From UHGV virus genome UHGV-0126007: 21,383 nt of DNA; one strand, written 5' to 3'. The stretch's first letter is position 1; every line of letters starts with the position of its first letter. Source of the DNA: a virus. Shown here piece after piece: positions 9,510-21,383 of this stretch. The position numbers were made by a program, and so were the translations under genes. Below the pieces are notes generated by a model. That model made no database searches. It saw only the letters and a list, made by a program, of their open reading frames with translations, and had not been told where the DNA came from.

Positions 9510-10049
9510 ATGCAACCACTTACATACCAACAGACTAGCGGATTTATTCCGACTGCGGTGATAAATCGTTCTCAAACAAAACAAGCTCCAGGCCACGAAA
9601 AAATCCGTGATGCCGTCCGCGCCTGGTCGGCTGTAGATAATCAGGATGTCGTTGCCGCACTCATTGTGAATGAGTATCGGGAGCAGGGCGACGGCACCAT
9701 CGATTTCCCTGATGATGTCAGCCGTGCACGCCAGAAGCTGTTCCGCTTCCTCGATAACAAATTCGATTCTGAAAAATACCGAAATAACGTGCGTGAACTG
9801 ACCCCGGCAATTCTGGCGGTACTACCGCTGGAATATCGCGGTTACCTGGTTGAGCAGGATAGCTTCATGACTCGGTTGGCTGAAATGGAAAAGGAACTCA
9901 GTGAGGCAAAACAGGCTGTCATTCTCAACGCACCACGCCACCAGAAACTGAAGGAAATGAGTGAAGGTATTGTGTCGATGTTTCGTGTGGACCCGGATCT
10001 GGCTGGTCCATTAATGGCGATGGTGACCACCATGCTGGGGGCAATATGA
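9510..10049 (+). CDS. Protein in the cII position, 179 aa; possibly a YdaT-family CII analogue
   Basis: Gene order repressor / Cro-like / this ORF / replication genes. Segment TPAILAVLPLEYRGYLV is reminiscent of YdaT-family proteins (weak, memory-based). Not lambda CII. Confidence 0.3.
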   Translation: MQPLTYQQTSGFIPTAVINRSQTKQAPGHEKIRDAVRAWSAVDNQDVVAALIVNEYREQGDGTIDFPDDVSRARQKLFRFLDNKFDSEKYRNNVRELTPAILAVLPLEYRGYLVEQDSFMTRLAEMEKELSEAKQAVILNAPRHQKLKEMSEGIVSMFRVDPDLAGPLMAMVTTMLGAI

Positions 10050-16172: not shown

Positions 16173-16556
16173 ATGCGTGATATTCAGATGGTTCTTGAGC
16201 GTTGGGGAGCGTGGGCGGCTAATAATCATGAAGATGTGACCTGGTCGTCCATTGCCGCCGGTTTTAAGGGATTAATTCCTTCAAAAGTAAAATCTCGCCC
16301 ACAATGTTGTGACGATGACGCGATGATCATTTGCGGGTGCATGGCCCGTCTGAAAAAGAACAACAGCGATTTGCACGATTTATTAGTAGATTATTATGTA
16401 GTCGGTATGACATTCATGTCACTGGCAGGTAAGCATTGCTGCTCTGATGGTTATATCGGGAAAAGGTTACAAAAGGCTGAGGGCATAATTGAAGGGATGT
16501 TAATGGCATTAGATATCCGGTTAGAGATGGATATCGTTGTTAATAACTCTAATTAA
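16173..16556 (+). CDS. quuD: Late-gene antiterminator Q (phage 82 / DLP12 QuuD type), 127 aa
   Basis: [90 protein letters not shown]... matches QuuD from recall; the ORF-track TTG at 16158 is probably not the real start. Confidence 0.88.
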
Positions 16557-16589
16557 TACGCCAATTATTTACTAAAAGTTATTAAAAAT

Positions 16590-16730
16590 GGGGCGTTGAA
16601 ACGCCCCCAAAAATAAAGGGTAATATATAACAGAAGGTTTGTATAGTTAGAAGCAAGGTTGTGCTTCTAAAGGAAGTGGCTTGAGGGAGCCACTTATATG
16701 TTGGGGAGGCAAAGCCTCCCACAACATATC
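16590..16730. promoter_or_regulatory. Cluster of four GC-rich hairpins between convergent Q and porin genes; candidate late promoter PR'/qut and terminators
   Basis: Hairpins at 16590-16607 (GGGGCG/CGCCCC), 16649-16668 (AGAAGCA/TGCTTCT), 16676-16693 (GTGGCT/AGCCAC), 16700-16725 (GGGAGGC/GCCTCCC). Possible -35 TTGAAA (16596-16601) and -10 TAATAT (16621-16626), with a -10-like TATAGT in the initial transcribed region. Confidence 0.4.
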
Positions 16731-16744
16731 TTTTAGTAATCAAA

Positions 16745-17827
16745 TTAGAACTGGTAAACCATACCTACAGCAACGATATCATCGGTAGCAACGCCAGATG
16801 CTTTCGTGAAATCGCTCTTATCAATCAGGTTGATTTTGTAGTCAACAAAAGTGGACATATTTTTGTTGAAGTAATAGGTTGCACCTACATCAACATATTC
16901 AACCAGGTCCTGATCACCCCAAACACCCAAGTCTTTTCCTTTAGAATGCAGGTAAGCAACGGATGGACGCAGGCCGAAGTCGAACTGATATTGTGCAACA
17001 GCTTCGAAGTTTTGTGCTTTGTTGGCAATATGGTTATTACCAAAAACAGTCATGTTCTGGGTTTCAGAATAGGTGGTGGCCAGATAGATGTTGTTCGCAT
17101 CATATTTCAGACCAGCTGCCCATACTTCAGCATTTTGACCAGAAGCATTCAGACCGTTGTTACCGTAGATAACCTGATTATTAGTGCGATCAGATTTAGC
17201 ATAGGTTGCACCCACGCCGAATCCTTCATACTCATAAGTAGTTGAGAAACCGAAACCATCGCCATTAGCTTCAGTTACTTCATTTCGGTCATTTTTGCCC
17301 TGATACTGAGCTGCAAAGTTCAGGCCATCAACCAGACCAAAGAAGTCGTTGTTACGATAAGTTGCAACACCTGTGGTGCGACCAGTCATGAATACATCTG
17401 TTTGGGTCCAGGTATCGCCACCGAATTCTGGCAGAACGTCAGTCCACGCACCGATGTCGTATGCTACACCGTAGTTACGGCCGTAATCGATTGAGCCGTA
17501 GTCACCGAATTTCAGGCCTGCAAATGCAAGACGGGTTTTGTCTTTGGAGGAACCTTGAGATTCAGCGCGGTTGCCTTTGAATTCATATTCCCACTGACCG
17601 AAACCAGTCAGTTGATCGTTGATTTGGGTTTCACCTTTGAAGCCAAGACGGGCATAAGTAGTATCACCATCATCTGCATCATTAGAGGAGAAGTAGTGCT
17701 TAGCATTAACTTTCCCGTACAGATCCAGCTTGTTACTGTCTTTATTATAAATTTCAGCTGCCTGAGCAGACATCGCCATCAGTACTGATGCAGCTACAGC
17801 AGAAATTGCCACTGTTAATTTTTTCAT
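16745..17827 (-). CDS. nmpC: Phage-borne general porin of the OmpC/OmpF family (NmpC / Lc type), 360 aa, apparently intact
   Basis: Signal peptide [23 protein letters not shown] then [17 protein letters not shown]...; typical porin beta-strand repeats; C-terminal aromatic (F); same position and orientation as nmpC between quuD and essD in DLP12. Confidence 0.85.
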
Positions 17828-18254
17828 CGTGAGCCCTTTTTTTTGAACTATTATTAAAAAATGATGTCACTGCGCGATAAATATTCATCTAATCAATATG
17901 ATTATTTCAAGATGTAAGTTTTGGTTTCTCGTTTGATTTGTGAAGTAGATCTCTATTTTTATCTGAACTTTTTCTATCGAATCCTATTCATGGCTCTTGG
18001 CTGAATAAAAATAAATCTATTAGCCAATTTATATTAACGGTTGTTATTTATAAGTGCTCTATGATTTGAAGGTTCAATTTAAATCGGCTAAAAATAACAC
18101 TGGGAATTATTTGTTGGTTATTTGTTGAGATTTGCTTATGTATTTGTGGTGGTGTTTTCAATACTCGGTAGCATTCTCGCAAATATCATTTAGTGGTTTA
18201 CGTACGTAAAAAATTGGTTATGCTGTTAAGAGTGGTTACTTCGTCACACAGCTT

Positions 18255-18287
18255 AAACCCGCCGTCGAGTGGGTTTTTCCATTTTTT
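18255..18287 (+). terminator. Terminator-like hairpin with T-run about 110 bp upstream of the holin gene
   Basis: Stem AAACCC / GGGTTT (18255-18276) with 10-nt loop, followed by TTCCATTTTTT. Confidence 0.4.
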
Positions 18288-18399
18288 GAGTCTCGATATT
18301 AGCTGATAACCCAATACCTGAGTTATTCACTGACTCCGAGTCTGTTACGTTTCGTAGTATTCCCTCAATTTACACCCGCTTTGTCTGCGAGGTGGGGTT

Positions 18400-18615
18400 A
18401 TGAAATCCATGGATAAGTTAACAACGGGTGTCGCCTATGGCACCTCAGCAGGTAGTGCCGGTTACTGGTTTTTACAGCTGCTCGATAAAGTCACGCCCTC
18501 ACAGTGGGCAGCAATAGGTGTGCTGGGTAGCCTGGTATTTGGCCTGCTGACGTACCTGACAAACCTTTATTTCAAGATTAAAGAAGATAAGCGCAAGGCT
18601 GCGAGAGGTGAATAA
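18400..18615 (+). CDS. essD: S21-type pinholin with dual-start motif (antiholin from Met1, holin from Met4), 71 aa
   Basis: [71 protein letters not shown] matches S21/EssD from recall; two TM segments; SD GAGGTGG. Confidence 0.9.
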
Positions 18616-19112
18616 TGCCTCCATCATTACGAAAAGCCGTTGCTGCTGCTATTGGTGGCGGAGCAATTGCTATAGCATCAGTGTTAATCACTGGCCCAAG
18701 TGGTAACGATGGTCTGGAAGGTGTCAGCTACATACCATACAAAGATATTGTTGGTGTATGGACTGTATGTCACGGGCATACAGGAAAAGACATCATGCTC
18801 GGTAAAACGTATACCAAAGCAGAATGCAAAGCCCTCCTGAATAAAGACCTTGCCACGGTCGCCAGACAAATTAACCCGTACATAAAAGTTGATATACCGG
18901 AAACAACGCGCGGCGCTCTTTACTTGTTCGTTTACAACGTGGGCGCTGGCAATTTCAGAACATCGACGCTTCTTCGCAAAATAAACCAGGGCGATATCAA
19001 AGGCGCATGTGATCAGCTACGTCGCTGGACATATGCTGGCGGTAAGCAATGGAAAGGTCTCATGACTCGTCGTGAGATTGAGCGTGAAATCTGTTTGTGG
19101 GGTCAGCAATGA
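18615..19112 (+). CDS. rrrD: SAR (signal-arrest-release) endolysin, lysozyme family (R21 / RrrD type), 165 aa
   Basis: N-terminal Gly/Ala-rich SAR helix ([18 protein letters not shown]); catalytic triad at E35, D44, T50 ([18 protein letters not shown]), as recalled for R21; start overlaps the holin stop. Confidence 0.9.
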
Positions 19113-19573
19113 ACAGAGTAACCGCGATTATCTCCGCTCTGGTTATCTGCATCATCGTTTGCCTGTCATGGGCTGTTAATCATTACCGTGATAACGCCAT
19201 CGCCTACAAAGAACAGCGCGACAAAAATGCCAGAGAACTGAAGCTGGCGAACGCGGCAATTACTGACATGCAGATGCGTCAGCGTGATGTTGCTGCGCTC
19301 GATGCAAAATACACGAAGGAGTTAGCTGATGCGAAAGCTGAAAATGATGTTCTGCGTGATGATGTTGCCGCTGGTCGTCGTCGGTTGCACATCAAAGCAG
19401 TCTGTCAGTCAGTGCGTGAAGCCACCACCGCCTCCGGCGTGGATAATGCAGCCTCCCCCCGACTGGCAGACACCGCTGAACGGGATTATTTCACCCTCCG
19501 GGAACGACTGGTAATGATGCAGGCCCAACTTGAAGGTGCTCAGCAATACATAACCGAGCAGTGTTTAAAGTAA
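19109..19573 (+). CDS. rzpD: Rz-type inner-membrane spanin (i-spanin), about 154 aa
   Basis: N-terminal TM helix ([20 protein letters not shown]) followed by coiled-coil periplasmic domain; ATG 19109 overlaps the endolysin stop. Confidence 0.85.
19329..19514 (+). CDS. rzoD: Rz1-type outer-membrane lipoprotein spanin (o-spanin), embedded in the +1 frame of Rz
   Basis: [23 protein letters not shown]...: lipobox LVVVGC, proline-rich mature part ([15 protein letters not shown]); wholly inside the Rz ORF. Confidence 0.85.
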
Positions 19574-19710: not shown

Positions 19711-21168
19711 ATGAATACATCTCATGTAAGAGTTGTTACTCATATGTGTGGGTTCCTGGTTTGGCTCTATAGTCTTTCAATGTTGCCACCAATGGTTGTA
19801 GCATTGTTTTATAAAGAAAAAAGCCTGTTCGTTTTCTTTATAACTTTCGTTATATTTTTTTGCATTGGTGGCGGAGCGTGGTATACAACTAAGAAATCTG
19901 GCATTCAATTACGTACCCGTGATGGGTTTATTATAATTGTAATGTTTTGGATTTTGTTTTCTGTTATTAGTGCATTCCCTTTATGGATTGACTCAGAACT
20001 TAATTTAACGTTCATTGATGCTCTGTTTGAAGGGGTTTCTGGAATAACAACAACAGGAGCAACTGTAATTGATGATGTTAGTTCATTACCTCGGGCATAT
20101 TTGTACTATCGGTCACAGTTAAATTTTATAGGTGGTTTAGGAGTTATTGTTCTGGCGGTTGCTGTATTGCCATTATTGGGTATTGGTGGTGCAAAGCTTT
20201 ATCAGTCAGAAATGCCGGGGCCATTTAAGGATGACAAACTCACTCCCCGCCTGGCCGATACGTCACGGACACTGTGGATAACTTATTCTTTATTAGGTAT
20301 TGCTTGTATTGTCTGTTATAGACTTGCAGGAATGCCTTTGTTTGATGCTATTTGTCACGGGATTTCCACAGTTTCGCTTGGTGGTTTCTCAACTCATAGC
20401 GAGAGTATCGGATATTTTAATAACTATTTGGTTGAGCTGGTGGCTGGTTCTTTTTCCCTGCTATCGGCTTTCAACTTCACTCTTTGGTATATTGTTATTA
20501 GCAGGAAAACGATAAAACCTTTAATCAGAGATATTGAACTTCGTTTCTTTCTGTTAATAGCCTTAGGGGTGATCATTGTTACCTCTTTCCAGGTCTGGCA
20601 TATAGGTATGTATGACTTGCATGGAAGTTTTATTCATTCGTTTTTTCTTGCCAGCTCCATGCTCACTGATAATGGTTTAGCTACGCAGGATTATGCAAGT
20701 TGGCCCACGCACACGATAGTGTTTTTGCTGTTGTCAAGTTTCTTTGGGGGATGTATAGGTTCAACTTGTGGTGGAATTAAGTCACTTCGATTTCTTATAC
20801 TTTTCAAACAAAGCAAACACGAGATAAATCAGCTTTCTCATCCCAGAGCGTTGTTGAGTGTAAATGTAGGAGGGAAGATAGTTACAGATCGTGTAATGAG
20901 GTCTGTATGGAGTTTCTTTTTTCTTTATACTCTCTTCACGGTGTTTTTTATACTGGTGTTAAATGGTATGGGATATGATTTTCTTACATCATTTGCAACA
21001 GTGGCTGCATGTATTAATAATATGGGATTAGGTTTTGGGGCTACTGCATCGTCATTCGGAGTGCTTAATGACATTGCAAAATGTTTAATGTGCATAGCTA
21101 TGATTCTTGGTCGCCTTGAAATTTATCCTGTTATTATATTGTTTTCAGGTTTTTTTTGGCGCTCCTAA
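19711..21168 (+). CDS. trkG: TrkG/TrkH-family potassium uptake membrane protein, about 485 aa (moron downstream of lysis cassette)
   Basis: MNTSHVRVVTHMCGFLVWLYSLSMLPPMVVALFYKE... matches E. coli TrkG (a Rac prophage gene) from recall; multiple TM segments; very AT-rich. An alternative TTG start at 19693 has a better-placed SD (AGGTGG). Confidence 0.9.
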   Translation: MNTSHVRVVTHMCGFLVWLYSLSMLPPMVVALFYKEKSLFVFFITFVIFFCIGGGAWYTTKKSGIQLRTRDGFIIIVMFWILFSVISAFPLWIDSELNLTFIDALFEGVSGITTTGATVIDDVSSLPRAYLYYRSQLNFIGGLGVIVLAVAVLPLLGIGGAKLYQSEMPGPFKDDKLTPRLADTSRTLWITYSLLGIACIVCYRLAGMPLFDAICHGISTVSLGGFSTHSESIGYFNNYLVELVAGSFSLLSAFNFTLWYIVISRKTIKPLIRDIELRFFLLIALGVIIVTSFQVWHIGMYDLHGSFIHSFFLASSMLTDNGLATQDYASWPTHTIVFLLLSSFFGGCIGSTCGGIKSLRFLILFKQSKHEINQLSHPRALLSVNVGGKIVTDRVMRSVWSFFFLYTLFTVFFILVLNGMGYDFLTSFATVAACINNMGLGFGATASSFGVLNDIAKCLMCIAMILGRLEIYPVIILFSGFFWRS

Positions 21169-21329: not shown

Positions 21330-21383
21330 GGTAGTGACTCCAACTTACTGATAGTGCTTTATGTTCAGATAATGCCCGATGAC
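21330..21383 (-). mobile_element. Terminal 54 bp of an IS1 insertion sequence (inverted orientation), running off the window
   Basis: GGTAGTGACTCCAACTTACTGATAGTGCTTTATGTTCAGATAATGCCCGATGAC matches the reverse complement of the IS1 right end (GTCATCGGGCATTATCTGAACATAAAACACTATCAATAAGTTGGAGTCATTACC) with about 3 mismatches, from recall. Confidence 0.8.

Follow-up and report, generated by a model that had tools for sequence, protein, structure and literature searches.

The porin locus in this stretch of DNA (the window, 21,383 nucleotides in full) is very probably an intact allele of the NmpC/Lc cassette, a self-contained minus-strand unit that lies between the antiterminator gene Q and the late promoter pR', would be transcribed from its own promoter and would bring about a porin swap in the lysogen. 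This reading is built on the integrity of the gene, its family membership, the conservation of its flanks, its position relative to pR' and a mosaic divergence focused on the loops, all of which are observed in the DNA. The features referred to below are as follows.

Positions 16173–16556, plus strand: antiterminator Q of the QuuD type (PF06530, E = 8.5e-54; annotated as quuD in E. coli QDFD216), the left neighbour of the cassette.
Positions 16585–16744, minus strand: structured 3' UTR with three internal hairpins and a Rho-independent terminator; its homologue is the ipeX region of DLP12/PA-2.
Positions 16590–16607, minus strand: terminator stem-loop of the porin/ipeX transcript, GGGGCGTTTCAACGCCCC and then ATTTTT, from a terminator scan and an RNA fold.
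Positions 16745–17827, minus strand: porin coding sequence, 360 aa, of which 23 form the signal peptide and 337 the mature porin of the NmpC/Lc/OmpD type.
Positions 17828–18190, minus strand: AT-rich 5' regulatory region and 5' UTR (GC 0.31–0.35; 95–100% identity to K-12/PA-2).
Positions 17936–17956, minus strand: putative CRP site as annotated in PA-2, ATAGAGATCTACTTCACAAAT, a 21-mer identical to J02580 1363–1383.
Positions 18197–18281, plus strand: putative pR' (TTTACG-16-TATGCT, 18197–18224), a short leader and tR' (18255–18276 and a T run), from homology to 933W/Stx phages and a terminator scan.
Positions 18400–19573, plus strand: lysis cassette of the phage-21 type, with pinholin S, lysozyme R, and Rz with an embedded Rz1 (PF04971, PF00959, PF03245; ORFs).

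Judged from its sequence, the porin gene at 16745–17827 is real and uninterrupted, and it is probably functional. The ORF list holds exactly one minus-strand frame over this interval, with an ATG start and no internal stops. The frame matches the Pfam family Porin_1 (PF00267) with E = 3.6e-152 along the entire profile (1–337 of 337), which excludes a chance ORF, and PDB chains of OmpK37, OmpC, OmpK36, PhoE and OmpF are matched over their full length with E values of about 1e-135 to 1e-115. Residues 1–23 are identical to the signal peptide annotated for PA-2 Lc (J02580 sig_peptide 1492–1560), and the N-terminus of the mature protein, AEIYNK, is also identical to that of PA-2 Lc and aligns with all K-12 porins. 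The loop-3 motif PEFGG is found at residues 133–137, and the protein terminates in VYQF. The C-terminal aromatic residue of general porins, a Phe, is required in outer-membrane assembly. An AF2 model computed from an alignment of 30 sequences contains 16 long strands (pLDDT 74.5, pTM 0.72) and places PEFGG inside the 117–153 loop, which is modelled at low confidence. No insertion is present in the gene, unlike K-12 nmpC, which is split by IS5. An earlier note on this DNA had described a full-length OmpC/OmpF-family porin of 360 aa with an intact signal peptide and a C-terminal Phe, and all three descriptions hold: the frame is single, the 23 signal residues are those annotated for PA-2 Lc, and the protein ends in YQF. 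The same note considered that the gene looks intact, and we agree, as it has neither an internal stop nor an insertion and the gene of phage ev099 is nucleotide-identical to it.

By sequence comparison the protein is a classical member of the NmpC/Lc/OmpD subfamily. For this comparison K-12 nmpC was rebuilt in silico by removal of IS5 and its 4-bp target duplication, which restores a frame of 365 aa. Alignment to NmpC, Lc and OmpD, proposed in the earlier note, gives identities of 91.7% to the rebuilt K-12 NmpC, 91.7% to PA-2 Lc and, for OmpD of Salmonella, about 80%. Between NmpC and Lc themselves the identity is 98.9%. According to the literature, OmpD is a major porin encoded in the chromosome. 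In a large protein database the OmpD proteins of Salmonella enterica and Citrobacter, which are similar in length to the window porin, are its nearest chromosomal relatives (approximately 78–81% identity). The chromosomal porins of K-12 are more distant, at 62–67% (OmpN 67%, OmpC 64%, PhoE 64%, OmpF 62%). Together with OmpK36/37 they belong to the same fold family, for which solved structures are available, and have PEFGG and the C-terminal Phe in common with the window porin.

RefSeq labels the protein "porin OmpC", and it could be supposed from this label that the ORF is the host chromosomal ompC, or a duplicate of it, rather than phage cargo. PGAP gives the name ompC, and the protein scores 515 bits against the NCBIfam OmpC subfamily model, above its cut-off of 484; its scores lie below both the PhoE and the OmpF equivalog cut-offs of NCBIfam. 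Only the broad "subfamily" model is thus passed, the identity to K-12 OmpC is 64% as against 91.7% to Lc/NmpC, and the gene has a prophage context instead of the ompC-micF one. The porin has Q and the lysis genes as its neighbours, within a prophage whose limits are int and ybhC; phages ev099 and ev243 carry an identical gene in their packaged genomes; and most genomes with a match contain additional matching places apart from it (median 2 per genome). We regard the host ompC identity as refuted by the prophage context, the ev099/ev243 copies and the identity values, and the probability left to it is practically negligible.

As phage cargo of the NmpC/Lc type, the gene can be compared with three carriers. 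Lc ("protein 2") of the lambdoid phage PA-2 (J02580) belongs to the same gene family and cassette, and its position and orientation with respect to the lysis genes match those in the window. Lc has 365 aa compared to 360 aa here, with 35 differences, 26 of which fall in the predicted loops L4, L5, L6 and L8, and PA-2 is an active phage whereas the window porin is carried by a defective prophage. K-12 NmpC (b0553) is located in the cryptic prophage DLP12/qsr', where IS5 lies 58 nt ahead of the stop codon, in accordance with the earlier statement that an insertion sequence disrupts nmpC in K-12; the window copy is intact. DLP12 and the window have the gene order ybcN, ninE, ybcO, rusA, ylcG, quuD, porin (minus strand), essD, rrrD, rzpD in common, and the porin flanks are 95–99% identical. 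In ev099 and ev243 (NC_049953, NC_049955) the porin is annotated OmpD/OmpC and is identical in protein sequence to the window porin. The ev099 gene has zero nucleotide differences and the Q-porin-holin order is the same, but part of its 5' region, corresponding to 18137–18038, is only 78% identical to the window. Both are complete plaque-forming temperate coliphages with virion genes, unlike the window prophage.

The arrangement of Q, porin and lysis genes is the same in K-12, PA-2, ev099 and 434B. The earlier note had placed the porin on the opposite strand between Q and the lysis genes and had called this the nmpC/Lc arrangement. Both points are confirmed, with Q at 16173–16556 and the lysis genes at 18400–19573 on the plus strand and the porin on the minus strand in the slot between them, as in K-12 and PA-2.

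The window corresponds to E. coli QDFD216 (NZ_CP053211) with one mismatch in 21,329 bases. The prophage there is inserted between ybhC and ybhB/bioA, which is the lambda attachment region. Its genes run in the order int, xis, exo, bet, gam, kil, an S24/HTH repressor, replication genes and the nin region, followed by ybcN, ninE, ybcO, rusA, ylcG, quuD, the porin (minus strand), essD, rrrD, rzpD, trkG and ynaK'. The last 54 bases of the window (21330–21383) are an IS1 end joined directly to the ynaK' fragment. In QDFD216, the closest complete genome, 3.1 kb more phage DNA precedes the same IS1, which there cuts the terminase gene, and the shorter distance in the window suggests an IS1-mediated adjacent deletion. 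No complete genome contained the exact trkG/ynaK'-IS1 junction as an uninterrupted match. The window shows no virion genes, and this, together with the IS1 truncation, makes the element a defective prophage. The element is not DLP12, though its nin-Q-porin-lysis module is of the DLP12/PA-2 type: DLP12 resides at argU in K-12 whereas the window prophage resides at the lambda att site (ybhC/ybhB), and the window prophage, unlike DLP12, has lambda-type int and red genes and a Rac-type trkG.

Lysogenic conversion by the NmpC/Lc family is established for PA-2 Lc. The proposal in the earlier note that the present porin is a candidate for such conversion stands as far as prophage carriage is concerned, but the carrier is an IS1-truncated element at the lambda att site without virion genes, so that any "conversion" would be by a defective prophage.

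In a sensitive search, positions 18196–18278 are 76–84% identical to the segment right after Q in hundreds of Stx phages. The 933W record labels its homologous segment putative pR' and tR', and in the alignment with 933W the TTTACG-16-TATGCT element pairs with the promoter of that phage and the plus-strand terminator at 18255–18276 pairs with its terminator. In the window this pR'/tR' module is situated just upstream of the holin gene and is separated from Q by the 1.6-kb porin cassette. The Q-to-porin spacer (16533–16760) was found by the same type of search only in 36 porin-carrying phage records. With Q on one side of it and pR' on the other, the cassette is outside the Q-antiterminated late transcript and is not crossed by late transcription.

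These positions bear on another explanation, in which the porin is an stx-like late-operon moron expressed mainly at prophage induction via Q antitermination. The porin does sit in the interval from Q to S, a location also used by stx and other cargo. A moron of the stx type is located downstream of pR'/tR' on the late strand, but here the porin is read from the opposite strand, the cassette ends in a terminator of its own, and the pR'/tR' homologue lies beyond it, adjacent to the holin gene. We therefore consider late expression of this kind highly improbable and prefer the self-contained unit. That the cassette lies upstream of pR' is a mildly new angle, of a descriptive kind.

Other assignments for the late control region were tried and rejected. 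One was a pR' right after Q (TTGAAA at 16596, TAATAT at 16621) with plus-strand hairpins next to it, from which late transcription would run antisense through the porin. It has a 19-nt spacer, the stretch 16533–16760 occurs only in porin-carrying phages, and the true pR'/tR' homologue is at 18197–18281. A late promoter in common with phage 1H12, whose Q has 88–89% nucleotide identity, was rejected as well, there being no similarity past position 16532 of the window. The record of phage 434B has no late-promoter annotation. We do not equate the pR' leader with StxS, as only about 80 nt can be aligned and the pR' transcript of the Sakai phages is 258 nt long (PMC7547250). In phage 1H12 (NC_049947) the same slot after Q is taken by an opposite-strand gene (1062–1586) for Blc, an outer-membrane lipocalin, so that the slot is a site of exchange for envelope-related cargo. 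A separate observation is that PA-2 and ev099 have, between tR' and the start of the holin gene, the 16-bp segment GTATCGCAAAAAAGCA, which is missing from the window and K-12 DLP12 (at about 18331/18332; alignment columns 70–85).

The region upstream of the porin has a GC content of 0.306 over 17828–18000 and 0.346 over 17828–18399, compared to 0.466 for the whole window. The AT-richness given in the earlier note is thus correct, but the extent of 17828 to about 18000 is too short, as the functional 5' region probably reaches to about 18190, where pR' begins. The 200 nt preceding the porin ATG are 98–100% identical to PA-2. A consensus promoter scan gave no match to a sigma-70 consensus promoter upstream of the porin. 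The PA-2 record also has a distal "CRP site", CTGTGTGACGAAGTAACCACT, which is found in identical form at 18231–18251, within the first part of the pR' transcript. 933W retains part of this stretch, which may serve Q binding or pausing instead of being a CRP site of the porin.

AT-rich DNA such as the porin 5' region is of the kind silenced by H-NS. The main alternative to expression from the cassette's own promoter is accordingly that the porin is intact but silent ("quiescent"), through H-NS-type silencing or through catabolite or temperature control, so that it is a remnant that has not yet decayed and gives no phenotype under ordinary conditions. The upstream GC content of 0.31–0.35, the promoter scan without a match and the IS1 truncation of the prophage agree with silence. 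The frequent IS knockouts in other strains suggest a dispensable or costly gene (bioRxiv 10.64898/2026.08.19.745717), and a reference title cited in PMC3333887 calls nmpC "quiescent" in laboratory strains. Several observations point the other way. The 98–100% identity of the 5' region is to lc, whose product is the new major outer-membrane protein of PA-2 lysogens (Schnaitman 1975, as cited in PMC8065619), and proteomes of outer membranes or vesicles from AIEC strains and Nissle 1917 include NmpC (PMC9409007, PMC6598517). In an evolution experiment with a B-type strain, excision of the IS alone was sufficient to restore nmpC transcription (bioRxiv 10.64898/2026.08.19.745717). Furthermore, the frame is identical to that in plaque-forming phages, which means that signs of decay are absent. 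We find a silent gene unlikely on this evidence, and we retain transcription from the cassette's own promoter as the preferred explanation.

The 3' UTR, which was missed in the earlier reading, extends for approximately 160 nt from the stop codon to the terminator and folds into four strong hairpins (MFE -58.5 kcal/mol, z = -8.6). Compared with the ipeX region of K-12 DLP12 it shows about 7 differences (identity about 96%), and with that of PA-2 the identity is about 95–96%; one review gives the length of the ipeX region as 167 nt. In Rfam, neither the 3' UTR nor the pR' leader has a match at the gathering threshold or at E ≤ 1, and IpeX apparently has no Rfam model. According to secondary accounts, among them reviews of Castillo-Keller et al., IpeX RNA represses ompC and ompF (PMC5069750, PMC12197685), and it is this RNA that lowers OmpC/OmpF. 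For PA-2/DLP12 the same accounts document expression in the lysogen along with diminished OmpC/OmpF. We assume that the activity is conserved here, given the approximately 7 differences from K-12 and an action on ompC that is poorly understood.

How the cassette would be expressed and placed under catabolite control, what IpeX would do and how phages would be excluded can be proposed from homology and the literature. The cassette would most likely be transcribed in the lysogen from its own promoter, independently of Q, and the porin is likely to be under catabolite control via the conserved CRP site. The protein would be exported by Sec and inserted by BAM, to form a trimeric general-diffusion channel in the outer membrane, and the co-transcribed 3' UTR RNA would decrease the synthesis of OmpC/OmpF. 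The net result would be a swap of the surface porin, in which permeability is changed and OmpC is removed as the receptor of OmpC-dependent phages. The swap would also have consequences for phages, colicins and CDI systems that dock on OmpC or OmpF. As the prophage is defective, any benefit from exclusion would now go to the host and not to the phage.

Comparison of the cassette with K-12/PA-2 reveals a clear and sharp recombination mosaic. From 18337 to about 17439, which covers the 5' region and the first ~390 nt of the coding sequence, nucleotide identity is 94–100%. It is only 69–87% over the distal ~680 nt (17438–16754, minus strand), i.e. two-thirds of the porin coding sequence, and climbs again to 95% in the 3' UTR. 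It is this low identity between highly identical flanks that marks the mosaic. When the 35 residue or indel differences from NmpC are placed on the loops of the AF2 model, 26 are in the 78 predicted surface-loop residues (L4, L5, L6, L8) and 9 in the other 259 residues of the mature porin. The enrichment corresponds to an odds ratio of about 14, with a Fisher p of about 1e-11, an approximate value given the mutual dependence of indel columns. In its barrel, loop-3 constriction and signal peptide the protein is essentially the same as Lc/NmpC. This loop-restricted divergence of the allele class in the window is again a mildly new, descriptive angle.

The loop-focused mosaic opens the possibility that porin cassettes are exchangeable "surface-swap" modules, in which a constant regulatory shell (the 5' region and ipeX, the latter silencing OmpC/OmpF of the host) is recombined with alternative distal L4–L8 segments. 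A lysogen would then display receptors and antigens characteristic of its allele class, adapted against particular porin-targeting phages, colicins, CDI toxins or antibodies. We put this forward tentatively and think it somewhat doubtful. It goes beyond what is documented for Lc, yet it extends a known idea and involves no new kind of system.

The exact 360-aa sequence is present in at least 1,000 public contigs, under the names "porin OmpD" or "outer membrane porin protein LC", and its 90% cluster has 2,741 members. Relatives of the gene occur in 42 phage records, including PA-2, 434B and P7. Of 5,426 complete E. coli genomes, 2,465 contain 80% or more of the 1.9-kb segment from the Q end through the porin to the holin start, and only 25 records match it at 99% or more. 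Copies disrupted by insertion sequences recur, with IS5 in K-12 and ISVsa5 in LT838200, and with IS1 in nmpC of the strain described in a 2026 preprint (bioRxiv 10.64898/2026.08.19.745717). Work since the 1970s–2000s has described the gene family together with its position, regulation and RNA tail, and this very protein is widespread and already carries an annotation. We therefore judge the finding correct but ordinary; it opens no new question.

Intact NmpC-type porins influence antibiotic entry, and together with ipeX they change the surface receptors shown to phages. Because of these effects, an uninterrupted copy is worth knowing for the annotation of strains and for predicting their susceptibility to phages and drugs. 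Reactivation of nmpC lowered beta-lactam resistance at the cell level and raised it at the population level, which the authors credit to higher drug permeability (bioRxiv 10.64898/2026.08.19.745717).

Three further observations concern the remainder of the prophage. A 61-aa ORF at 19329–19514 (plus strand) lies out of frame inside Rz, has a lipoprotein-like N-terminus (…LVVVGC…) and is the expected Rz1 o-spanin. At 9510–10049 (plus strand), beside a cro-like regulator in the immunity region, the QDFD216 annotation has a "toxin YdaT domain-containing protein". Directly after Rz, trkG encodes a TrkH-family potassium transporter (19711–21168, plus strand) with a low GC content of 0.378, a gene familiar from the Rac prophage. 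The segment 19600–21383, containing trkG, ynaK' and the IS1 end, has a match in 1,679 of 5,426 complete E. coli genomes, which makes trkG a second cargo gene of the same element.
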